A stretch of 64,000 nt of DNA from Shigella phage SH7. The position numbers and the translations under genes were made by a program. The stretch lies in the sequence record KX828711; one strand, given 5' to 3'. Under the pieces are notes generated by a model, which worked only from the letters and a program-made list of their open reading frames with translations, had not been told where the DNA came from and made no database searches. Shown in pieces: positions 2,659-59,683 of this stretch (its first letter is position 1; each line of letters begins with the position of its first letter).

Positions 2659-3296
2659 TGAATGAACCCCAATTACTAATTGAAACTTGGGGTCAACCTG
2701 GCGAAATTATTGATGGCGTACCAATGCTTGAATCTCATGATGGAAAAGACTTAGGTTTAAAACCTGGTTTATACATCGAAGGAATATTCATGCAAGCGGA
2801 AGTCGTCAATAGAAATAAACGTCTTTATCCAAAACGTATATTAGAAAAAGCGGTAAAAGACTATATTAATGAGCAAGTTTTAACTAAACAAGCTCTCGGA
2901 GAATTAAATCATCCTCCACGCGCTAATGTTGACCCGATGCAAGCCGCTATCATTATAGAAGATATGTGGTGGAAAGGAAATGACGTATACGGACGAGCTC
3001 GTGTTATTGAAGGTGACCATGGTCCTGGAGATAAATTAGCAGCTAATATTCGTGCCGGATGGATTCCAGGAGTTTCTTCTCGTGGATTAGGTTCATTGAC
3101 TGACACAAATAAAGGTTATCGTATAGTAAACGAAGGATTCAAATTAACTGTAGGTGTTGATGCAGTATGGGGCCCAAGTGCTCCAGATGCATGGGTAACT
3201 CCTAAGGAAATTACCGAATCACAGACGGCGGAAGCCGATACAAGTGCCGATGACGCCTATATGGCTCTCGCAGAGGCCATGAAAAAAGCGTTATAA
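2658..3296 (+). CDS. 21: prohead core protease gp21
   Basis: 212 aa ORF, same length as T4 gp21; TAATG coupling; position. Confidence 0.9.
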   Translation: MNEPQLLIETWGQPGEIIDGVPMLESHDGKDLGLKPGLYIEGIFMQAEVVNRNKRLYPKRILEKAVKDYINEQVLTKQALGELNHPPRANVDPMQAAIIIEDMWWKGNDVYGRARVIEGDHGPGDKLAANIRAGWIPGVSSRGLGSLTDTNKGYRIVNEGFKLTVGVDAVWGPSAPDAWVTPKEITESQTAEADTSADDAYMALAEAMKKAL

Positions 3297-3300
3297 ATAT
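3293..3300 (+). promoter_or_regulatory. late promoter TATAAATA for gene 22
   Basis: Exact TATAAATA 27 nt upstream of gene 22 ATG. Confidence 0.6.
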
Positions 3301-3326
3301 TATTATCTAAACAACAGGACTACAAA

Positions 3327-4136
3327 ATGCTTAAAGAACAACTGATTGCCGAAGCGCAGAAAATTGATGCTTCTGTTGCTCTTGATAGTATTTTCGAATC
3401 AGTTAATATTTCTCCGGAAGCAAAAGAAACTTTCGGCACTGTATTCGAAGCTACCGTCAAGCAGCACGCCGTTAAATTAGCTGAATCTCATATCGCTAAA
3501 ATTGCTGAAAAAGCAGAAGAAGAAGTAGAAAAAAATAAAGAAGAAGCCGAAGAAAAAGCTGAGAAGAAAATCGCTGAGCAAGCTTCTAAATTCATTGACC
3601 ATCTTGCAAAAGAATGGCTCGCTGAAAATAAATTAGCAGTTGATAAAGGCATCAAAGCTGAACTGTTTGAATCCATGCTTGGTGGATTAAAAGAGCTCTT
3701 TGTTGAACACAACGTTGTTGTTCCAGAAGAATCAGTTGATGTTGTAGCTGAAATGGAAGAAGAGTTGCAAGAACATAAAGAAGAATCAGCTCGTCTGTTC
3801 GAAGAACTCAATATGCGCGACGCATATATCAATTATGTGCAGCGTGAAGTGGCATTGAGCGAAAGTACTAAAGATCTGACTGAGTCTCAAAAAGAAAAAG
3901 TCTCTGCTCTGGTCGAAGGTATGGATTATTCAGATGCATTCTCAAGTAAATTGAGTGCCATCGTAGAAATGGTGAAGAAGTCTAATAAAGATGAAAGCAC
4001 TATTACTGAGGGTATAAATACTCCTGATACTGAAGCAGCCGGACTGAATTTCGTCACTGAAGCTGTAGAAGATAAAGCTGCACAGGGTGCAGAAGATATT
4101 GTAAGTGTATATGCGAAAGTCGCATCTCGTTTCTAA
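3327..4136 (+). CDS. 22: prohead core scaffold protein gp22
   Basis: 269 aa, E/K-rich coiled-coil-like sequence; position before major capsid gene. Confidence 0.9.
   Translation: MLKEQLIAEAQKIDASVALDSIFESVNISPEAKETFGTVFEATVKQHAVKLAESHIAKIAEKAEEEVEKNKEEAEEKAEKKIAEQASKFIDHLAKEWLAENKLAVDKGIKAELFESMLGGLKELFVEHNVVVPEESVDVVAEMEEELQEHKEESARLFEELNMRDAYINYVQREVALSESTKDLTESQKEKVSALVEGMDYSDAFSSKLSAIVEMVKKSNKDESTITEGINTPDTEAAGLNFVTEAVEDKAAQGAEDIVSVYAKVASRF
4013..4020 (+). promoter_or_regulatory. late promoter TATAAATA for gene 23, inside 3' end of gene 22
   Basis: Exact TATAAATA about 135 nt upstream of gene 23 ATG. Confidence 0.55.
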
Positions 4137-4154
4137 TTTTAAAGGTTAACACAA

Positions 4155-5720
4155 ATGACTATCAAAACTAAAGCTGAACTTTTGAACAAATGGAAGCCAT
4201 TACTGGAAGGTGAAGGTTTACCGGAAATTGCTAATAGCAAACAAGCGATTATCGCTAAAATCTTTGAAAACCAGGAAAAAGATTTCCAGACAGCTCCGGA
4301 ATATAAAGACGAAAAAATTGCTCAGGCATTCGGTTCTTTCTTAACAGAAGCTGAAATCGGTGGTGACCACGGTTACAATGCTACTAACATCGCTGCAGGT
4401 CAGACTTCTGGCGCAGTAACTCAGATTGGCCCAGCTGTTATGGGTATGGTACGTCGTGCTATTCCTAACCTGATTGCTTTCGATATTTGTGGTGTTCAGC
4501 CGATGAACAGCCCGACCGGTCAGGTATTCGCACTGCGTGCAGTATACGGTAAAGACCCAATCGCTGCCGGTGCTAAAGAAGCATTCCACCCAATGTATGG
4601 TCCAGATGCAATGTTCTCTGGTCAGGGTGCTGCTAAGAAATTCACAGCTCTGGCTGCTAGCACACAAACCACAGTAGGTGATATCTATACTCACTTCTTC
4701 CAGGACACTGGTACTGTGTATCTGCAGGCTTCTGCTCAAGTAACAATTAGTTCTACTGCAGATGATGCAGCTAAATTAGATGCTGAAATTAAGAAACAAA
4801 TGGAAGCTGGTGCACTGGTAGAAATCGCTGAAGGTATGGCTACTTCTATCGCTGAACTTCAGGAAAGTTTCAACGGTTCCACCGATAACCCATGGAATGA
4901 AATGGGCTTCCGTATCGATAAGCAAGTTATTGAAGCTAAATCTCGCCAGCTGAAAGCTGCTTACTCTATCGAATTAGCACAGGACCTCCGCGCTGTTCAC
5001 GGTATGGATGCTGATGCTGAACTGTCTGGTATTCTGGCTACCGAAATCATGCTGGAAATCAACCGTGAAGTTGTTGATTGGATTAACTACTCAGCTCAGG
5101 TTGGTAAATCTGGTATGACCCTGACTCCGGGTTCTAAAGCTGGTGTATTTGACTTCCAGGATCCGATTGATATTCGTGGTGCTCGCTGGGCGGGTGAATC
5201 CTTTAAAGCTCTGTTGTTCCAGATTGACAAAGAAGCAGTTGAAATTGCTCGTCAGACCGGTCGTGGTGAAGGTAACTTCATTATCGCTTCCCGTAACGTA
5301 GTTAACGTTCTGGCTTCAGTTGATACCGGCATTTCTTATGCTGCACAAGGTCTGGCTACCGGCTTTAACACTGATACTACCAAGTCAGTATTTGCTGGTG
5401 TTCTGGGTGGTAAATACCGTGTATATATCGACCAGTATGCTAAACAGGATTATTTCACTGTAGGTTATAAAGGTCCGAACGAAATGGATGCTGGTATTTA
5501 CTATGCTCCATATGTAGCTCTGACTCCGCTGCGTGGTTCCGATCCGAAGAACTTCCAACCGGTAATGGGGTTCAAAACTCGTTACGGTATCGGTATCAAC
5601 CCATTTGCAGAATCCGCTGCTCAGGCTCCGGCTTCTCGCATCCAGAGCGGTATGCCTTCTATTCTGAATAGCCTTGGTAAAAACGCTTACTTCCGCCGTG
5701 TATATGTTAAAGGTATCTAA
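4155..5720 (+). CDS. 23: major capsid protein gp23
   Basis: 521 aa ORF, T4 gp23 length; strong codon bias typical of highly expressed late gene. Confidence 0.96.
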   Translation: MTIKTKAELLNKWKPLLEGEGLPEIANSKQAIIAKIFENQEKDFQTAPEYKDEKIAQAFGSFLTEAEIGGDHGYNATNIAAGQTSGAVTQIGPAVMGMVRRAIPNLIAFDICGVQPMNSPTGQVFALRAVYGKDPIAAGAKEAFHPMYGPDAMFSGQGAAKKFTALAASTQTTVGDIYTHFFQDTGTVYLQASAQVTISSTADDAAKLDAEIKKQMEAGALVEIAEGMATSIAELQESFNGSTDNPWNEMGFRIDKQVIEAKSRQLKAAYSIELAQDLRAVHGMDADAELSGILATEIMLEINREVVDWINYSAQVGKSGMTLTPGSKAGVFDFQDPIDIRGARWAGESFKALLFQIDKEAVEIARQTGRGEGNFIIASRNVVNVLASVDTGISYAAQGLATGFNTDTTKSVFAGVLGGKYRVYIDQYAKQDYFTVGYKGPNEMDAGIYYAPYVALTPLRGSDPKNFQPVMGFKTRYGIGINPFAESAAQAPASRIQSGMPSILNSLGKNAYFRRVYVKGI

Positions 5721-20709: not shown

Positions 20710-20713
20710 CAAT

Positions 20714-20731
20714 GGGGACCGAAAGGTCCCC
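20714..20731. terminator. bidirectional hairpin terminator (ggggacc-GAAA-ggtcccc)
   Basis: Perfect 7 bp stem, T-run follows; between convergent genes. Confidence 0.7.
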
Positions 20732-20737
20732 ATATTT

Positions 20738-21028
20738 TTATTTACGGAATGAAATAAAGGCAGCAACTGAAGCAACAGAGGTTTCTTCAATATAAACCTC
20801 AATTTTTACCGGAGCTTCTGACTCAAATTTACCTGTTACTACACCTTGGAAAATACTTTCAGTCTGTTCTGGCTTTGAAAAATTTTCAGAAGGAAAAATT
20901 CCAAACTTTTTATCGGTTCCGAAAATTTTAATAAATTCATCGTAAACTGCTTCATTAAAAGCATTATCAGCAGGAATAACGCCTTCAACTACAAGTTCTT
21001 GACCTAAAAAGCGCAAAGAAGATTTCAT
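20738..21028 (-). CDS. hypothetical protein (position of T4 alt.-3)
   Basis: 96 aa ORF with GAGGA RBS. Confidence 0.6.
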   Translation of the reverse strand: MKSSLRFLGQELVVEGVIPADNAFNEAVYDEFIKIFGTDKKFGIFPSENFSKPEQTESIFQGVVTGKFESEAPVKIEVYIEETSVASVAAFISFRK

Positions 21029-21036
21029 TTTGTGTT

Positions 21037-21090
21037 CCTCATGTTATGTCAGTAAGACTACTATAACACAACACGAGGGACTTGTAAACT
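21037..21090 (-). promoter_or_regulatory. early promoter cassette (GTTTAC -35, TATAGT -10) plus leader; copy 1 of a 54 bp repeat
   Basis: Near-identical to 36806-36859 (1 mismatch). Confidence 0.55.
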
Positions 21091-23146
21091 ACATTTTGAA
21101 CTTTTTAGACATTCCGTTAATGTTAACCAAAGAAGCTAAGATTTGAGAAACTTCGTTTTCCTCTTCTTTTGATTCTTCTACAAGGAATTGATTAAATCCA
21201 GCCATTGGACGAACTTCACCAGTTTCCATTAGATGGTCGCCATCATATACTGATTCTTCTAATTGTTCAGAAGGAGGAACGATTGTACCTTCGATTAGAT
21301 ACTTGTTATAAGCAGTTTCTTTCATAAAGTAAGTACTTACTTTATTAATCTTCAGTAAAATTCCACGTGGTAGAATAACTTCAGCTTCTGATGGAAATCC
21401 TGATAAATGACCCGGAACGATAACTTTAACTCGTTCAGCTCCTTTAATTACCATACCCACGCTAGTTTCAGCATCTTCATTAGCATATGTAGAATGACTA
21501 CCCATATGCATCAAATCTTCTGCATCAACGGAACCTTCTCCTTCACCAGAAAATACTGCTCCGGAATCATCTAAGGCCATATAATTTTTACCATACTCAC
21601 CAAAGATATTTGGTTTAAGTGATGTAGATACGAAGTTCTTGAAATAGAACATTTTATTTTCAATGTTATGACGCAAAGTTTTAAAAGTAACTTCTTGTCC
21701 ACGGTAAAGTGTAGTTCCTGGAGGAAGAACTGAACCTTTAGCAAACGCAGAATCCATAGTCTCGATGTGCTTAATAGCGCGCTCCATGTATTCTTCACGT
21801 GTAGAATCAGGTTTACCTAAAAGGAATGAGTTCATTTCAACATACGAATCTGCACAATAATCTTCAATTACATCAGATTCAGCCTGAGTCAATCCTTTTG
21901 GAGTTACTTCAGTGCTTGCATATTCATACGCCTGAGCAGCGGATTCATCAATTAATTTATAAATGCCATTCATGACAAATTGAATAATAGCTGTCTTTTC
22001 ATCTGGCGTAGCTTTAGAACCTTTAACTAAATCATTGACAATTTTCTTAATAACATCAAAGCTATTAGAAATATTAATGTCAGCAAGATCGCTTAAAATT
22101 TTATCAGTTTTATAATCAAAAAATTCTTTATTCTTTAAATATTCTTGAGAACTTTGATATGTTATATCGCTCTGCAACTTGATAGATGGATCACGTAAAC
22201 GTGCATGGGCTAATGCAATATGACTTCGGAAGCTTTCTAGTTCATAATCACTAGATTTAAAACGAGAAGCACTCCTCATATCACCGATAGCTCCTTTGCC
22301 GAAGTTTGAACCAATCTGAATAACGCCAGAGTTCATTGGTCCTTCTGCTTTATATACCGGAACTTTAGATTCAAACTCTTGATATTTCTTAGCAGCAAAG
22401 CTATCACCCTGAAGTGAAGCATCAACAGTAGAATATTGAGCTTGTGCTGCTAATCGACGACTAATTTTAGTTTTCTGAATAACAGCTTGATCCGTACGCT
22501 TATCATTTTCTAAAGCAATAGAAGCAGCAACTGCGACAGCTTTAGGAACAGCATTACCTGTTTTAACGTCTACATAAACATCACCGACTTTCGATTCAAC
22601 TTTTGTGAATAACTCAGTTGAAATAGGAGGTACACCTGGAATGTCTTCTAAATTGGCATTTTTACGGTAAACCATAATATATGCATATTTCTTATCATAG
22701 TCCCAGATTTCCTTTAAAAGAACATATCGACCTGCTCCTTTAGTACGTACTAAACGGTCAGCAATAACTTGCATTTGACGAGCAGCGCCATTTGTTTTAC
22801 TTTTTAGTACGCGGAATAGGCATGCATCAATTTTATACTGTTTCATTGTTTGAAGAGCAGTATCAAAAACAGCATTAATGACGCCAATTGGATTTCCACC
22901 CAAGTTTTTAAGCTTAACTAATGATAATTTTTCATTAACACCTATCATTACGATATGCATCATTTTGTCGCCTGGCTTAACGTTTTTATTCGTATCACCG
23001 CCAGAGGTGTATGTACAAAATCTAAATCCAGGAAGCACGCTTTCTTCACCGGCTTGAATAGCAAAAATTTGTGGTATTTTATGCTTAGGATTTAAGTTAA
23101 CAACCGGCGCCGAAGCGCCGTCAAATAATTCTGTAATAAGTTCCAT
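21089..23146 (-). CDS. Alt-family ADP-ribosyltransferase paralog (occupies alt.-1/alt.-2 position)
   Basis: 685 aa; N-terminus MELITELFD shared with neighbour; C-terminal ART motifs LYRGQ, STS, EAEVILPRG. Confidence 0.85.
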   Translation of the reverse strand: MELITELFDGASAPVVNLNPKHKIPQIFAIQAGEESVLPGFRFCTYTSGGDTNKNVKPGDKMMHIVMIGVNEKLSLVKLKNLGGNPIGVINAVFDTALQTMKQYKIDACLFRVLKSKTNGAARQMQVIADRLVRTKGAGRYVLLKEIWDYDKKYAYIMVYRKNANLEDIPGVPPISTELFTKVESKVGDVYVDVKTGNAVPKAVAVAASIALENDKRTDQAVIQKTKISRRLAAQAQYSTVDASLQGDSFAAKKYQEFESKVPVYKAEGPMNSGVIQIGSNFGKGAIGDMRSASRFKSSDYELESFRSHIALAHARLRDPSIKLQSDITYQSSQEYLKNKEFFDYKTDKILSDLADINISNSFDVIKKIVNDLVKGSKATPDEKTAIIQFVMNGIYKLIDESAAQAYEYASTEVTPKGLTQAESDVIEDYCADSYVEMNSFLLGKPDSTREEYMERAIKHIETMDSAFAKGSVLPPGTTLYRGQEVTFKTLRHNIENKMFYFKNFVSTSLKPNIFGEYGKNYMALDDSGAVFSGEGEGSVDAEDLMHMGSHSTYANEDAETSVGMVIKGAERVKVIVPGHLSGFPSEAEVILPRGILLKINKVSTYFMKETAYNKYLIEGTIVPPSEQLEESVYDGDHLMETGEVRPMAGFNQFLVEESKEEENEVSQILASLVNINGMSKKFKM

Positions 23147-23149
23147 GAT

Positions 23150-25210
23150 TTATCCTTGAACGAACTTGTAAGGCATGTTTGTAATATCTATGCAAGACGC
23201 AATAATTCCAAGAGATGATTCTACTTTCTGTTTAACATTTGATGAAACAAATGATGCAAAGTCAACTCTGTCTTCTATTTCAATATCACCTGTCATTGCA
23301 ACCAATTCACCAGTTTCCATTAGACGGTCACCGTCATAAATGACTGATTCGGTGAGTTCTTCCGTAGTCATAACTTCAGCTTGAATAAGCTTGTTGTTAG
23401 TTTTGACTGTTCCATCATTGTAAGATGCATCAGTTATTTTATTAACTTTGACCATTAATCCACGTGGCAAAATGACTTCCATTTCATTTGAAGGCGCTAA
23501 ACTTCCGCCTGGTAAAACAACATTGACTTTATCAGCCCCAGTAATAACCCATCCAATTCCGACTAAATTATCGCTAGAATTAACAAGCCCTTCATCATTT
23601 TTATCGATAGAAATGTTTAGACGCTTTTCATCTGGTAAAACACCAACAGCTGAATCAGTCATCCAAGTACCAAAAATGTTTGGATATAATGATGTTGATA
23701 CAAAATTTCTAAAATAAAAAACTCGATTTTTTACCAATGCTTCATATATTGAAGGTAACATTCGCTGTGAACGATATAAAGTAATACCCTTTGGCAATCG
23801 ATCACCATTTTTAAAGGCTGAATCTAAATTATCGATGGCTTGTTCTATTTCAGGTGCTGTTAAAATACTTGTACGCTCATCTGGATTATATAATCCCAAA
23901 AGAGCATTATTCATGTCTACATATCCTGAACCTACATATTCACGAATTCCGCGTTTTTGCGCTGGCGTGTATTTAGATGAATCTTTATTTTCGACTATAG
24001 AATGCAATGACCATCCAACAGTAAGAGCATATCCACGTAATTCTCTTCGAATAATCTTTGTTTTTATTGCATTCCAAGAATTTTGCACTAACTCATTATT
24101 CGCAGTGTCTTGATTTAAATGCGAATGCTTGTTAATATTTCTTTCTAACCAAGCACCTTTATATTTTTCTAAAGTATCATCGACTATAGAAGCAATAGTT
24201 TCTAAAGTTTTTATTGAAGTAATAGATTCTTTTCGTAATCTTTCTAAAGCTTTATTTTTTATTTCTGTATTAACATCAGATTCTTTATCTTCAGGAATTA
24301 TAGAAGCTTCTCTGAATGCCATTCCAGCTGTAACACTATTAAGAGCATTCTCTAATGCAAATCCTGAAGTAGAAATAACAGTTAATTCATTAGCATCAGA
24401 AATTAAAGGAGCGTCAGCGGGTTTATTTAATTCTGCTGCTGAAGCCTCAAATTTTTGAAACATCGGCGTTTCAAATCTAGAAGATTCCAACGACTGACTT
24501 TGTGCAATTGCTCTACGGGAAATTTTAACTTTAACGATTACAGCTTGGTCAGAACGTTTATCATTTTCTTGTGCAATAGATGCTGCAATTGCCTCATTTT
24601 TAGTTACTTGGGCTCCAGTATCTTTATTGATATAAACATCACCGACCTTCGATTCAACTTTAGTAAAGAGCTCGGTACTAATTTCCGGAACTCCTGGAAT
24701 GTCTTCTAGTGATACATTTTTGCGATGTATAAGAATATATGCATACTTTTTATCATAATCCCAGAGTTCCTTAAGAAGGACGTATCTGCCACCTGAACGA
24801 CTACGGATAAGTCTATCAGCAATAACTTGAATTTGTCGAGCTTGGCCAGCAGTTTTAGACTTAAGAATACGAAGCATACAAGCATCAATTTTATACTGAC
24901 GCATCGTTTGCATTGCAACAGTAAAAACTGAATTGATATAATTAATTGGGCTTGGACCAAGACCTTTTAATTTAGCAATTGAACCTTTAGCAGTTAATGT
25001 AAAAGGAACAATATGCATCATTTTATCGCCCATTTTTAAATCGCGATTAGTATCACCTCCAGATGTATAGGTACATAAACGAAAGCCTGGTTGTTCAATT
25101 GCGTCATCGACATGAACTGAAAAAATTTGTGGTATCTTCTTCTTTGGATTTAAGTTTGTAATCGGAAGAGTAGTATCTTCGTCAAATAATTCTGTAATAA
25201 GTTCCATCAT
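23150..25210 (-). CDS. alt: Alt ADP-ribosyltransferase (packaged, injected with DNA)
   Basis: 686 aa; ART motifs LYRSQ, STS, EMEVILPRG. Confidence 0.85.
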   Translation of the reverse strand: MMELITELFDEDTTLPITNLNPKKKIPQIFSVHVDDAIEQPGFRLCTYTSGGDTNRDLKMGDKMMHIVPFTLTAKGSIAKLKGLGPSPINYINSVFTVAMQTMRQYKIDACMLRILKSKTAGQARQIQVIADRLIRSRSGGRYVLLKELWDYDKKYAYILIHRKNVSLEDIPGVPEISTELFTKVESKVGDVYINKDTGAQVTKNEAIAASIAQENDKRSDQAVIVKVKISRRAIAQSQSLESSRFETPMFQKFEASAAELNKPADAPLISDANELTVISTSGFALENALNSVTAGMAFREASIIPEDKESDVNTEIKNKALERLRKESITSIKTLETIASIVDDTLEKYKGAWLERNINKHSHLNQDTANNELVQNSWNAIKTKIIRRELRGYALTVGWSLHSIVENKDSSKYTPAQKRGIREYVGSGYVDMNNALLGLYNPDERTSILTAPEIEQAIDNLDSAFKNGDRLPKGITLYRSQRMLPSIYEALVKNRVFYFRNFVSTSLYPNIFGTWMTDSAVGVLPDEKRLNISIDKNDEGLVNSSDNLVGIGWVITGADKVNVVLPGGSLAPSNEMEVILPRGLMVKVNKITDASYNDGTVKTNNKLIQAEVMTTEELTESVIYDGDRLMETGELVAMTGDIEIEDRVDFASFVSSNVKQKVESSLGIIASCIDITNMPYKFVQG

Positions 25211-25230: not shown

Positions 25231-25238
25231 TATTTATA
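25231..25238 (-). promoter_or_regulatory. late promoter TATAAATA (minus) upstream of alt
   Basis: Plus tatttata = minus TATAAATA about 20 nt upstream of alt ATG. Confidence 0.55.
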
Positions 25239-25243
25239 AAATT

Positions 25244-25261
25244 AAAGGCCCGAAGGCCTTT
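25244..25261 (-). terminator. hairpin (aaaggcc-CGAA-ggccttt) overlapping stop of upstream ORF
   Basis: Perfect stem with CGAA loop. Confidence 0.5.
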
Positions 25262-25448
25262 AGTAATCTAGTGGTAAGAGAGTACGATATATTTCAAACT
25301 TTGGTCCTTTTTCATAGGCATCAAATGTTTCTGTAAATTTATTGTAAGCGTATGCATCTACAAATTCGAGAATGACTTGTGATACAGAAGTAGAAACATC
25401 TCCACCTTCTTTTTGAGCAATGACAATTGTTTCTAAGTAAGCTTTCAT
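25260..25448 (-). CDS. hypothetical protein (position of T4 alt.1)
   Basis: 62 aa ORF overlapping ligase stop. Confidence 0.5.
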   Translation of the reverse strand: MKAYLETIVIAQKEGGDVSTSVSQVILEFVDAYAYNKFTETFDAYEKGPKFEIYRTLLPLDY

Positions 25449-26908
25449 AAACCAGTTACCTCATGAAAATCACCAAATACATCCTCGAATGTATTAGCTT
25501 TAGTTTTATCTTCACGTAAACGAATCGCAATCGGAAGAAATAATTTAACGTAATCGGTGCGGCCATCAGATTTTAACCAACCGTTGCATTCGCACTCTAG
25601 AATTTTTCCAATATAATAATTTTGGTTTTCCATAATGCGAGTACGGTCAAGTTCATGCGATTTTACACCGGCTTTATCTTTTAAGCCTGAACCAGCATTT
25701 ACTTTAATTTTTCCACACTCTGACTCAAGAATAAATCCACCAGCTTTAGTAGGGTCTTTACGGTGAGGATAAATTCCTACAATTTTTAAATCAACATCAA
25801 TTACTTCTTTAAATTTATAAAGATTTTTTGAACGAGCATTTTCCCATAATCCATCGGTATTTTTGAGAATAATACCTTCAAGACCTTGGTCAATATACTT
25901 TTTGTAAATTACCTTAGCTTCATCTAGGTTATTTACTAGCTGGTTTTCAATTAAAATTACTTTATCATAGCCTGATGTCATTTGTTCTAGTTTAGAAAAA
26001 CGTACATCATACTTTAAACGAAATGCAGGAAGACCATATATTTCTACTAATGGAACATAGTCCCAGACCTGAAACTTCATGCATTGAGCTTCTTTTTCTG
26101 AAATAGTTCCCTTTAAAGATTTATTAGCGATTCCATTAGAAGCAGTACGTGATTCAGCTACTTCGGCGAATTCTTTAGCTTTACTAATTTCAGGATAAGC
26201 ATCAAAAAGAAAATCTAGGCCTTCTGGCTCCTTTTTAACTTGCTCATGGTATACCAATTCGCCATCAATTAACACACCTTCTGGATGAATCTGGCGAGCT
26301 TCTGCAGTCATTTTAATTAACTCTTCCTTAAGAAGATCTAATCCTAGATATTCATTACCAGCTCGTGATAAAAGACGAACATCATCTAATTCATCACCTC
26401 TGACTTCAGCAAAGCACCGAGCTCCATCAGCTTTTAATTGGGCAAAGGCTGGAAATTTGATATTCTTATTAATGCCTTTTTCATCATAAGAACTTGCCAG
26501 CATTTGAGGTTGTTCAGGAATTAAACCTGGCCAAACTTTGTTTGCAATAGATACTGAAGCACCGCATTCAAGGTCTCGCATCATCACCCGACGCAAAACT
26601 TCAACATCATCTTTTTTACCGTCAGTAATATATCCAGTTAATTCCTCAATTGCCGCATTTCCGGTCAATTTCCGAGTAGCTAACGTGAATTCAATGAAGT
26701 CAAGCATATCGGTAAGAGTTAACATTCCAAAACTCTGGGTAGCAATACCCGGTTTAGGCCATTTCTTGATATAATACTGTAACCCACGAGAATAAGTCAG
26801 ACGATATACTCGTTTAAGCAATTCATTATCTTTATTCTTTTCAAGAATTGCTTGCTTCTGTTTAGTTGAACCAATAGATGCTATTTCATTCAGAATTTTA
26901 AGAATCAT
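25445..26908 (-). CDS. 30: ATP-dependent DNA ligase gp30
   Basis: 487 aa (T4 ligase length); adenylation motif KADGAR. Confidence 0.96.
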   Translation of the reverse strand: MILKILNEIASIGSTKQKQAILEKNKDNELLKRVYRLTYSRGLQYYIKKWPKPGIATQSFGMLTLTDMLDFIEFTLATRKLTGNAAIEELTGYITDGKKDDVEVLRRVMMRDLECGASVSIANKVWPGLIPEQPQMLASSYDEKGINKNIKFPAFAQLKADGARCFAEVRGDELDDVRLLSRAGNEYLGLDLLKEELIKMTAEARQIHPEGVLIDGELVYHEQVKKEPEGLDFLFDAYPEISKAKEFAEVAESRTASNGIANKSLKGTISEKEAQCMKFQVWDYVPLVEIYGLPAFRLKYDVRFSKLEQMTSGYDKVILIENQLVNNLDEAKVIYKKYIDQGLEGIILKNTDGLWENARSKNLYKFKEVIDVDLKIVGIYPHRKDPTKAGGFILESECGKIKVNAGSGLKDKAGVKSHELDRTRIMENQNYYIGKILECECNGWLKSDGRTDYVKLFLPIAIRLREDKTKANTFEDVFGDFHEVTGL

Positions 26909-55545: not shown

Positions 55546-58500
55546 ATGGCTACTTTAAAACAAATACAATTTAAAAGAAGCAAAACGGCAGGTCAACGTC
55601 CAGCTGCTTCAGTATTAGCCGAAGGTGAATTGGCTATAAACTTAAAAGATCGTGTACTTTTTACTAAAGATGATCAAGGAAATATTATTGACTTAGGTTT
55701 TGCTAAAGGCGGTAGTATTGACGGGAATGTTATTCATAAAGGCAATTATAACCAAACTGGCGATTATACTTTAAACGGTACATTCACCCAGACTGGTAAT
55801 TTTAATTTAACCGGTATTGCTCGAGTAACTCGTGATATTATTGCTGCTGGGCAGATTATGACTGAAGGCGGAGAACTTATTACAAAAAGTTCAGGAACGG
55901 CACACGTTCGTTTTCATGATTCCGCCGACCGTGAACGCGGTATTATTTTTTCTCCTGCTAATGACGGTTTAACTACACAGGTAGTTAACATCAGAGTTCA
56001 AGATTACAAAGCTGGTTCAGAAAGCACTTTCGCTTTTAATGGAAATGGTTTGTTTTCTTCACCAGAAGTTTTTGGGTGGAAATCTGTATCAACTCCGGTA
56101 ATTTATACCAATAAAGTTATCACCAATAAAAAAGTTAAAGATGATTATGACATCTATTCGACGGCAGACAATGTTCCATTGTCTGAAAGCACTACTGCTA
56201 TTAATCATCTTCGTGTTATGCGTAATGCAGTTGGTTCTGGTATTTTCCATGAAGTTAAAGATAATGATGGAATAACATGGTATAGTGGAGATGGATTAGA
56301 CGTTTATCTTTGGTCATTTACTTGGAGCGGCGGAATTAAATCAAGTCACTCAATTTCCATCGGTTTAACACCCGGACCTAAGGATTACTCAATATTAGGA
56401 CCGTCTAGTATCGCTTTAGGAGATAATGATACTGGATTTAAATGGCATCAAGACGGATATTATTTCAGTGTTAACAATGGCACAAAAACGTTTTTATTTA
56501 GTCCCAGCGAAACAACTAGCCTAAGAAAATTTGTAGCTGGATATTCTACTAACGGAACCGATTTAACTACTCCTCCAACTGAAAATTATGCTCTTGCTAC
56601 TGTAGTGACATACCATGATAATAACGCGTTTGGGGATGGTCAGACTCTTTTAGGATATTATCAAGGCGGTAACTATCATCACTATTTCCGCGGTAAAGGT
56701 ACCACAAACATTAATACTCACGGTGGTTTGTTAGTTACTCCTGGTAATATTGATGTTATTGGCGGTTCTGTTAATATCGATGGTAGAAATAATGCTTCTA
56801 CAGCGATGTTTAAAGGTAACACAACAGGTAGTAGTTCTGTGGATAACATGACAATTTCCGTTTGGGGCAATACGTTTACTAATCCTAGTGTAGGTAATCG
56901 TAAAAACGTCATGGAAATTTCTGATGCAACTAGCTGGATGAGTTATATTCAAAGACTTACAACAGGTGAAGTAGAAATGAACGTTAACGGTTCATTTGAA
57001 TCATCTGGTGTTACTGCTGGAAATAGAGGAGTTCACACAACGGGCGAAATTTCATCTGGGGCTGTGAATGCGCTTCGTATTTGGAACGCAGATTATGGAG
57101 CTATTTTTAGACGTTCAGAAGGCAGTCTTCATATTATTCCAACTGCTTACGGTGAAGGTAAATATGGCGATATCGGTCCACTTCGCCCGTTTAGTATGGC
57201 TTTAGATACCGGTAAAGTTACTATTCCAGATTTACAATCAAGTTACAATACGTTTGCTGCTAACGGTTATATTAAATTTGTTGGTCATGGAGCGGGTGCC
57301 GGCGGTTATGACATTCAATATGCTCAAGCGGCTCCTATTTTCCAGGAAATTGATGATGATGCTGTAAGCAAATATTATCCTATTGTTAAACAGAAGTTTT
57401 TAAATGGTAAAGCTGTTTGGTCTTTAGGTACTGAAATTAGTTCAGGTACATTCGTTATTCATCATCTGAAAGAAGATGGTTCACAAGGCCATACGTCTCG
57501 TTTTAATCAAGACGGTACTGTTAACTTCCCAGATAACGTTTCTGTCGGCGGCGGTGAAGCTACTATTGCTCGCAATGGTAATATCTGGTCTGATATCTGG
57601 AAAACGTTTACTTCAGCAGGCGACGTAACTAATATTCGCGATGCAATAGCTACTCGTGTTGCTAAAGAAGGTGATACGATGACCGGTAGGTTGACTTTAT
57701 CTGCTGGAAATGATGCCCTTGTTTTAACTGCAGGCGCGGGTGCTTCATCGCACATCCGTAGTGATGTAGGTGGTACAGGTAACTGGTATATAGGCAAAGG
57801 CGGCGGCGACAATGGTCTAAGTTTTTACAGTTACATTACACAAGCCGGTGTGAACATAACAAATAACGGCGAAATAGCGCTTTCTCCTCAAGGACAAGGA
57901 GCGTTTAATTTTAATAGAGACCGCCTTCATATAAACGGTACACAATGGGTTGCGCATAAATCTGGCGCCTTTGGTGACCAATGGAGTTTAGAAGCTCCGA
58001 TATTTATAGATTTTGGTAGTGTCAGTAATGACTGCTATTATCCTATTATTAAAGGAAAATCTGCTATTACTAATGAAGGATACATATCTGGTGTTGATTT
58101 TGGTATGCGTCGTATCACTAATAACTGGGCGCAAGGTATTATTCGTGTAGGTAACCAGGAAAACGGTTCTGACCCACAAGCTGTATATGAATTTCACCAT
58201 AACGGAACTCTGTATGTTCCTAACATGGTTAAAACTGGAGCAAGATTATCAGCTGGCGGCGGCGACCCGGTGTGGACTGGGCCATGTCTTGTTATTGGTG
58301 ATAATGATACTGGTTTAGTCCATGGCGGTGATGGCCGAATCAATATGGTTGCCAATGGTGTTCATATTGCTTCATGGTCATCTGCTTATCATCTCCATGA
58401 AGGTCTTTGGGATACTACTGGTGCTTTGTGGACTGAGCAAGGAAGAGCTATTATTTCTTTTGGTCATTTAATCCAACAGAGTGATGCCTATTCTACATTT

Positions 58501-58857
58501 GTCCGTGATGTTTATGTCCGTTCTGATATTCGCGTTAAAAAAGACCTCGTTAAATTTGAAAATGCTTCTCAGAAGCTTTCTAAAATTAACGGTTACACTT
58601 ATATGCAGAAGCGAGGCCTGGATGAGGAAGGTAATCAGAAATGGGAACCTAACGCTGGTTTAATTGCTCAAGAAGTTCAAGCTATTTTACCAGAATTAGT
58701 TGAAGGCGACCCTGATGGTGAAGCTTTACTTCGTTTGAACTATAACGGTGTAATTGGTTTAAATACAGCTGCAATCAATGAGCATACTGCAGAAATTGCG
58801 GAACTTAAATCAGAAATTGAAGAACTTAAAGCATTAGTTAAATCATTGTTAAAATAA
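55546..58857 (+). CDS. 37: long tail fibre distal subunit gp37 with C-terminal intramolecular-chaperone-like domain
   Basis: 1103 aa; C-terminal SDIRVKKDL...[15 protein letters not shown]...coiled coil. Confidence 0.9.
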
Positions 58858-58862
58858 TAAGA

Positions 58863-58876
58863 GGGGCTTCGGCCCC
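58863..58876 (+). promoter_or_regulatory. hairpin (ggggc-UUCG-gcccc) abutting gene 38 Shine-Dalgarno
   Basis: Hairpin followed directly by ttGGAGG and ATG 58889. Confidence 0.5.
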
Positions 58877-58888
58877 TTGGAGGTTTAT

Positions 58889-59683
58889 ATGGCAGTAACA
58901 GGACCGTGGGTAGGATCGTCTGCAGTAGTTAATACAGGACAAAATTGGATGGGCGGCGCGGCCCAACGATTAAGAATGGGTGCTCCATTTTGGATGAGTA
59001 ATATGATAGGTCGATCTGTTGAAATAATTCACACGCTTGGAGCAGACCATAACTTCAATGGTCAATGGTTCCGAGATAGATGTTTTGAGGCAGGTAGTGC
59101 ACCTATAGTGTTTAATATCACCGGAAATTTGGTATCATATTCCAGAGACGTTCCTTTATTCTTCATGTACGGAGATACACCTAATGAATATGTTCAATTA
59201 AATATTGGTGCTGGAGCTCATATGTGGGGTAGAGGTGGACAAGGTGGATGGACTCATTCTGGTGGAGATGGTAATGGTCAACAGGGTGGACATTGTATTC
59301 AAAATGACATTGGTGGTCGATTAAGAATTAATAACGGCGGAGTAATTTGTGGCGGTGGTGGCGGTGGTGGCGGTATCGCTTATCGTCCTCACTCTGGTGC
59401 AAACTGGCAGGATATTGGTGGCGGTGGAGGAAGACCATTTGGCCCAGGAGGTGGCGGTGGTTATTCAGGAGGTGCTGCTTCTTATGACGGCCCAGGAGGT
59501 GGTTATAATTATGGTAATGCTCATTCTGGCCAGGGCGGTGATGCTGGCGCAAATGGACAAAATGCCTGGCATGATGGCGGTAAAGTACTAAAAGTCGGTG
59601 CTGGCGGGGCCGCAGGTTATGCTGTCATAGGGTCTGCTCCAACATGGCAAAATGTTGGAATAATATATGGTCCAAGAGTATAA
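58889..59683 (+). CDS. 38: gp38 receptor-recognising adhesin, T2-type with glycine-rich motifs
   Basis: Start MAVTGPW; several poly-Gly blocks ([18 protein letters not shown]) separating variable segments. Confidence 0.85.

Follow-up and report, generated by a model that had tools for sequence, protein, structure and literature searches.

The tandem alt locus of Shigella phage SH7: a T4 Alt orthologue and an intact Alt-like paralog

The alt locus of Shigella phage SH7

Alt is the textbook case of a phage enzyme that is packed into the head, injected, and reprograms the host, and the functional work on it comes entirely from T4. The present analysis concerns the alt locus of Shigella phage SH7, studied in a 64,000-nucleotide (nt) stretch of sequence record KX828711 (hereafter the window, meaning the whole stretch analyzed). 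The window is that of a Tequatrovirus (T4-like phage), is ~96% identical to many isolates, and exactly matches none in the collection compared. Two adjacent minus-strand open reading frames (ORFs) were found in the ORF listing of the window, at 21089–23146 (685 amino acids, aa) and 23150–25210 (686 aa), placed between DNA ligase/alt.1 and alt.-3/gene 54, which is the position of alt in T4. The upstream gene (slot 1) is here named altA and the downstream gene (slot 2) altB, and both are ordinary members of a well-annotated family.

That two adjacent minus-strand Alt-type ORFs lie here had been the original prediction, made from the letters of the sequence, and it was borne out by the ORF listing and by the family searches described below. 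The predicted lengths of 685 and 686 aa call for one amendment: both ORFs exist, but the true start of altA is probably the second ATG (25207), giving 685 aa, because T4, with the same ATGATGG, is annotated from the second ATG and because the GAGG Shine-Dalgarno sequence sits 2–3 nt from the first.

23150–25207, minus strand: altA, slot-1, T4-type (A1) Alt ADP-ribosyltransferase, with 685 aa if begun at the second ATG (probable start; the mechanical ORF runs to 25210)
21089–23146, minus strand: altB, slot-2 paralog, intact Alt-like ADP-ribosyltransferase, 685 aa

Similarity and domain organization

BLASTP aligned altA and altB end to end at 42% identity over 722 columns (E = 2e-158), which is far past chance. 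Both proteins matched phrog_802 ("Alt-like RNA polymerase ADP-ribosyltransferase") over their full length (altA, E = 2e-263; altB, E = 4e-256), as well as PF03496 (ADPrib_exo_Tox; altA, E = 4e-34, 118.1 bits; altB, E = 8e-20, 71.5 bits), in each case above the Pfam gathering score of 23.4 bits. The conserved Tevenvirinae N-terminal domain was found in both; precomputed matches to PF26846 (Tevenvirinae_ADPRT) exist for a homologue of 98% identity and for the fusion genes described below, and this model went unreported in the Pfam search of the window proteins. NCBIfam and PADLOC searches matched neither protein, and no third Alt-like sequence was found in the window. At the amino acid level, altA is 96% identical to T4 Alt.

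The layout of the two genes, with the ADP-ribosyltransferase (ART) domain preceding the C-terminal propeptide, is as follows.

24494–25207, minus strand: altA N-propeptide MELITE and conserved N-domain (residues 7–238); T4 Alt is cut after E6
23963–24493, minus strand: altA middle region (residues 239–415), with no sequence relation to that of altB
23348–23962, minus strand: altA ART domain (residues 416–620), with R479 at 23771–23773, S504-T-S506, and E575-M-E577 at 23477–23485
23153–23347, minus strand: predicted altA C-propeptide, 65 aa after L-T-E620, with YDGDxLMETGE
22433–23146, minus strand: altB N-propeptide MELITE and conserved N-domain (residues 7–238), 68% identical to that of altA
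21902–22432, minus strand: altB all-helical middle domain (residues 239–415), 16–18% identical to the altA region
21254–21901, minus strand: altB ART domain (residues 416–631), with R482 at 21701–21703, S507-T-S509 from 21626, and E587-A-E589 at 21380–21388
21092–21253, minus strand: predicted altB C-propeptide, 54 aa after L-E-E631, with YDGDxLMETGE

The pairwise comparison by region for which the original prediction had called gave 68% identity over residues 1–238 (altB numbering), 16–18% over the middle (residues 239–415), which is effectively unalignable, 34–36% over the ART domain (residues 416–625), and ~44% over the C-terminal tail. The strings MELITELFD, NLNPK.KIPQIF, KIDAC, RQ.QVIADRL, and GRYVLLKE.WDYDKKYAY, quoted earlier as shared, are all present and aligned. 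A divergent middle had likewise been foreseen, and correctly so; divergence is not limited to the center, however, the ART domains also being only ~35% identical.

The altB middle domain is 44% identical to that of the Dhakavirus slot-2 protein. Searched against 1.84 billion representative proteins, it returned 0 matches, with even the representative of its own cluster missed, presumably because that representative carries a different middle domain; the null search thus speaks against a distant family and is uninformative on close relatives. The altB middle domain therefore appears to be without detectable relatives outside the Alt family. The N-domain has a confidently predicted fold (predicted local distance difference test, pLDDT, 84), and a search for its structural neighbors returned nothing informative.

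Catalytic competence

Both proteins retain the R, S-T-S, and E-x-E catalytic motifs of the R-S-E clade, and the C-terminal strings noted earlier (LYRSQ/LYRGQ, FVSTSL, and E.EVILPRG) are present and aligned in both. Loss of the triad in one copy, which would have spoken against the original prediction, was looked for by alignment, and R-S-E proved intact in each. Indeed, across 20 aligned homologues covering both lineages, R482, S507, S509, E587, and E589 (altB numbering) never vary.

A PDB search with the single altB sequence gave no match, whereas the profile of the 20-homologue alignment matched C3cer, BECa, Certhrax, Vis, and CDTa; Y-R and E-x-E fell where C3cer and BECa have their catalytic positions. 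AlphaFold modeled altB at a mean pLDDT of 71, with the ART core mostly at 70–89 and a variable, low-confidence insertion between S-T-S and E-x-E; Foldseek with this model returned Vis, C3bot, VIP2, CDTa, and Iota Ia (E = 5e-7 to 3e-4). Taken together, motifs and model suggest that altA and altB are arginine-type (R-S-ExE) mono-ADP-ribosyltransferases of the Alt/VIP2/C3 kind, with the enzyme activity of altB a prediction, and E-x-E indicates arginine specificity. The ARTT-loop region just before E-x-E differs between the two, reading GHLSGFPSEAE in altB and GGSLAPSNEME in altA.

Head-protease processing and packaging signals

T4 Alt is a protein of the prohead core, present at ~40 copies per head, processed by gp21, and injected with the DNA (PMC9026906), and it ADP-ribosylates the alpha subunit of Escherichia coli RNA polymerase and other host proteins (PMC9503650). 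Mass spectrometry located the gp21 cleavages at ITE-6 and LTE-619, giving a 68.2-kDa product (PMC5694885). A single Alt homologue is also present in the virion of a Klebsiella T4-like phage (PMC13119998).

Both altA and altB begin with MELITE, and the aligned C-terminal site is L-T-E620 in altA and L-E-E631 in altB. All 20 homologues keep E6 and E631 as well as Y634, D635, G636, D637, E641, G643, and E644 (altB numbering). The suggestion that the shared N-terminus is protease-processed agrees with the T4 cut at ITE-6, and the second cut, at LTE-619, goes beyond what had been proposed (PMC5694885). The ITE-6/L-x-E rule yields a calculated mass of 68.2 kDa for T4 Alt and predicted masses of 68.4 kDa for altA and 69.2 kDa for altB. 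The motif S-x-(x)-YDGD-x-LMETGE of the C-propeptide is invariant in the 20 homologues; the LME within it also fits the L-x-E rule of gp21, and the motif may serve in targeting, tethering, or auto-inhibition. Given the conserved cleavage motifs, the invariant E6 and E631, and the conserved C-propeptide motif, altB is likely packaged and processed by gp21.

Expression signals

The signals flanking and joining the two genes are listed below.

25243–25262, minus strand: terminator hairpin (UUCG loop) where alt.1 ends, right before the late promoter (−12 kcal/mol, z = −3.1)
25231–25238, minus strand: putative late promoter, matching the T4 late consensus TATAAATA and lying 23 nt before altA begins
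23147–23160, minus strand: altA–altB junction, with an AAGGA Shine-Dalgarno sequence in the end of altA, TAA, a 3-nt spacer, and the altB ATG

The TATAAATA site is the sole one of its kind on the minus strand between 14 kb and 30 kb, and its context is identical in T4 and T2; as the single such site in that interval, it probably drives both genes. No promoter or terminator was found between altA and altB, and the layout of the junction fits co-transcription and coupled translation.

Selection on altB and its distribution

Comparison of altB with its T2 orthologue gave a nonsynonymous divergence (dN) of 0.009, a synonymous divergence (dS) of 0.18, and a dN/dS of 0.048, with purifying constraint in every domain, including the middle domain (dN/dS of 0.14 against T2). 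altB is under strong purifying selection and hence is no pseudogene.

Full-length altB at ≥90% identity was found in ~400 phage records, of roughly 500 Tequatrovirus records. The 369 records retrieved at ≥80% coverage are not taken as a count of genomes with T4-type altA plus altB, genomes with another slot-1 allele (A2, below) plus altB lying near the 80% threshold. The tandem pair is annotated in hundreds of records, as "Alt-like RNA polymerase ADP-ribosyltransferase (x2)", as "alt_1/alt_2", or, in RB51, as "alt.-2"; the two-gene alt locus is the usual condition in the genus, has been annotated before, and is not new. About four in five sequenced T4 relatives thus encode a strongly conserved second Alt-type enzyme, for which no experimental characterization was found in the literature. 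T4 is the exception among its relatives, having lost most of the second copy.

The remnant of altB in T4

The T4 annotation describes alt.-1/alt.-2 as "a duplication of the first part of alt". The comparison of the window with T4 alt, alt.-1, and alt.-2, which the original prediction had recommended, leads to a different assignment, with altA the orthologue of Alt and alt.-1/alt.-2 the remains of altB. The T4 segment (NC_000866, 5053–5470; L001) matches the first 348 nt of altB at 96% nt identity, and its translation is 95–98% identical to the first 116 residues of altB but 56–62% identical to Alt, ruling out a partial duplication of alt. Beyond this remnant the match of the T4 DNA resumes only in the final ~85 nt of the altB region, and the junction lies within a 9-bp direct repeat, CTAAAAAGT, found at altB nt ~340 and ~2031. 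The match and the jump at the repeat together mean that T4 lost ~1.69 kb of altB. T4 alt.-1/alt.-2 is therefore the remnant of a full-length altB that acquired a frameshift and lost the stretch between the CTAAAAAGT copies.

Fusions, slot-1 alleles, and the age of the duplication

ECML-134 and vB_EcoM_SCS4, both complete genomes, carry a single 686-aa gene between alt.1 and alt.-3, and three metagenomic contigs likewise carry a single gene there, in which an altA-type N-terminus is joined to an altB-type body (A::B).

ECML-134 (L007), 2742–4802: fusion gene, A(N-terminus)::B
Contig L005, 5001–7055: fusion gene, A(N-terminus)::B
Contig L006, 5001–7061: fusion gene, A(N-terminus)::B
Contig L003, 6001–8061: fusion gene, A(N-terminus)::B

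Site-by-site typing showed one clean switch from A-type to B-type in each fusion, and the switch points fall at four positions in the conserved first 700 nt (~nt 150, 460, 550, and 655). These switches are unequal crossovers that removed the altA body. An assembly artifact of the kind to be considered for Logan or other metagenomic data is unlikely for the ECML-134 fusion, since the same junction occurs in two separately deposited complete genomes; the three contigs are less certain, as they could in principle be chimeric assemblies. In ECML-134 and the three contigs, the locus retains no ART body other than that of altB, in keeping with a functional altB, and the fusions show that N-domains are interchangeable and that altB can be the sole Alt enzyme.

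Slot 1 also varies. The T2 slot-1 protein (PV648363, 1404–3497; L002) is identical to altA over residues 1–250 and the C-terminal tail, but only 18–40% identical in the middle and ~67% in the ART domain. The T2-type body (A2) is ~51% identical to the T4-type body (A1) over the middle and ART regions together. A1 was found in 173 records, and many others among the matches listed carry the ~51%-identical A2. From its pattern of identity, the A2 allele looks like a cassette replacement by recombination.

Three genera were compared through the window (21089–25207), dhabil (L008, 701–4888), and SP18 (L009, 867–4811). Across genera, each body has its orthologue in the corresponding slot: Tequatrovirus altB and Dhakavirus slot 2 share 44% identity in the middle and 58% in the ART domain, and A2 and Dhakavirus slot 1 share 64% and 83%, respectively. 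N-domains instead group by genus, at 64–67% identity within a genome versus 42–47% between genera, whichever slots are compared. The slot-by-slot orthology of the bodies places the duplication before the split of these genera, and it is therefore ancient rather than recent. The N-domains of paired genes appear to undergo concerted evolution, whether driven by gene conversion, by a capsid partner common to the two proteins, or by both, and their grouping by genus speaks for a capsid-specific module.

Proposed function of the pair

We consider it probable that altA and altB are two late-expressed, head-packaged, gp21-trimmed, injected Alt-type ARTs, and that they differ in host targets. Under this proposal, the genes would be co-transcribed late from the single TATAAATA promoter, with altB translation coupled to the end of altA. 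Each product would comprise four modules, namely a 6-residue N-propeptide with a ~230-residue domain, a helical middle, the ART domain, and a C-propeptide of ~55–65 residues. The conserved ends would bring both proteins into the prohead core, where gp21 would trim each at I-T-E6 and at the L-x-E site (E620 of altA, E631 of altB) to ~68–69 kDa; a few dozen copies would then be injected with the DNA, and host proteins would be ADP-ribosylated ahead of phage gene expression. Differences in the helical middle domain, in the ARTT loop, in the variable insertion between S-T-S and E-x-E, and in the ART cores make it probable that the two enzymes modify different targets. We infer, on good grounds, the packaging, cleavage, injection, and activity of altB as well as its difference in targets; the purifying selection, the differing ARTT loop, and the unrelated middle domain all agree with the earlier proposal of "two injected enzymes" that differ in target specificity.

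Several points weigh against this proposal. The candidate late promoter was identified by its match to the consensus; neither virion proteomics, nor an activity assay, nor a target list for altB was found in the literature; and the T4 deletion junction is found in 91 records. To our knowledge, studies of Alt have been confined to T4, which is without altB. Furthermore, alt is non-essential in T4, and this, together with the lack of altB in T4, implies that altB is dispensable at least in laboratory hosts.

Among the alternatives, the one that survives best, although we regard it as unlikely, is redundant dosage: a packaged, active altB would share its targets, RNA polymerase alpha among them, with altA and simply supply more enzyme. 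Architecture, E-x-E catalytic type, and operon are indeed common to the two, and either body has been lost in nature, as seen in the T4 deletion and the A::B fusions. Nevertheless, ART domains that are only about one-third identical and middles that cannot be aligned are difficult to reconcile with shared targets, as are lineages that have been distinct since before the Tequatrovirus/Dhakavirus split; simple redundancy would also not lead one to expect strong purifying selection on each gene.

A second alternative, for which the chances appear slim, holds that altB is active but neither packaged nor injected, and acts late in the producing cell or has a non-enzymatic role. The missing proteomic evidence for altB in virions would suit such a protein, and ModA and ModB of T4 are phage ARTs that act although they are not packaged (PMC9503650). 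The identical MELITE, the similarity of the N-domains, and the conserved L-x-E site and C-propeptide motif all argue against it, however, and natural A(N)::B fusions stay in frame at all four crossover points; in addition, expression of altB appears to be late and coupled to altA. That altB is a decaying duplicate turning into a pseudogene, the fate seen in T4 and 90 further records, where only a frameshifted, internally deleted remnant is left, is highly improbable and, for the window, effectively refuted by the intact 685-codon ORF with all catalytic residues present, by the selection signal, and by the wide occurrence of full-length copies.

A broader reading, to which we give slightly less than even credence, would extend the proposal of two injected enzymes to the T-even phages as a group. 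The alt locus would be a two-slot polymorphic effector locus, in which a genus-specific packaging N-domain and a C-propeptide are kept constant, the N-domains are homogenized, and the middle-plus-ART bodies (A1, A2, and B) are swapped, fused, or deleted, each body with distinct targets, possibly including defense factors. If so, T4, without altB, under-represents the proteins that T-even phages inject. If altB has host targets of its own, the current account of the first seconds of a T-even infection has a gap.

Neighboring genes

The minus-strand order is DNA ligase (25445–26908), alt.1 (25260–25448; PF24647), altA, altB, and alt.-3 (20738–21028; DUF5498), followed by genes 54 and 48 on the plus strand; the neighbors of the pair are thus alt.1, alt.-3, and baseplate genes. 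In the window, alt.-3 encodes 96 aa, a normal length, and has its own early-type promoter, TTTACA-17-TATAGT, at 21060–21088. In T4, mutations that extend the C-terminus of alt.-3 stabilize CmdA and lead to escape from CmdTAC defense (bioRxiv 10.1101/2024.02.24.581662). A bidirectional terminator lies at 20712–20733, at alt.-3. Farther away, the plus-strand tail-fiber region (55546–59683) holds ORFs of 1103 and 268 aa where genes 37 and 38 are expected; judged by ORF lengths, we take this to be nearer the T2-type gp37/gp38 adhesin arrangement than that of T4.

Comparison with known systems

The closest characterized relative is T4 Alt (gpAlt, 682 aa), with which altB shares the four-module architecture, the position in the genome, R-S-ExE, both gp21 motifs, and phrog_802. 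The two proteins are only 41% identical, however, and altB differs in its ARTT loop and in a middle domain unrelated to that of Alt. Tandem pairs with the same two-slot layout between alt.1 and alt.-3 occur in T2, AR1, RB51, SP18 (alta/altb), dhabil, and 44RR (ORF187c), although slot contents differ: slot 1 of T2 holds an A2-type body, and the pair of the Gaprivervirus SP18 is more divergent. Paralogs of alt, including a full-length one in 44RR, were already described by Nolan et al. in 2006 (PMC1524935).

C3bot, Vis, VIP2, Iota Ia, CDTa, and BECa have the catalytic fold and the R, STS, and (E/Q)xE motifs in common with the Alt pair. The sequence match of these C3-like and binary toxins to altA and altB is limited to the ART domain. 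These toxins depend on secretion or on a B component for their delivery; for T4 Alt, delivery is from the phage head. As far as sequence can tell, altA and altB share only the catalytic domain with them and are not classed as toxins of this type.

ModA and ModB of T4 are small, early, unpackaged proteins with neither the N-domain nor the propeptides. They are, like altA and altB, phage-encoded ARTs of the R-S-E clade (classification in PMC9503650); no Mod-named family was among the PHROG matches of altA and altB, and the likeness drawn here is one of classification. A test for an N-terminal MuF domain (Phage_Mu_F) in altA and altB found none. The MuF-fused, head-packaged ARTs and polymorphic-toxin-like effectors nonetheless offer a parallel in concept, in that a conserved delivery module is combined with swappable enzymatic cassettes that are shuffled by recombination (PMC9503650).

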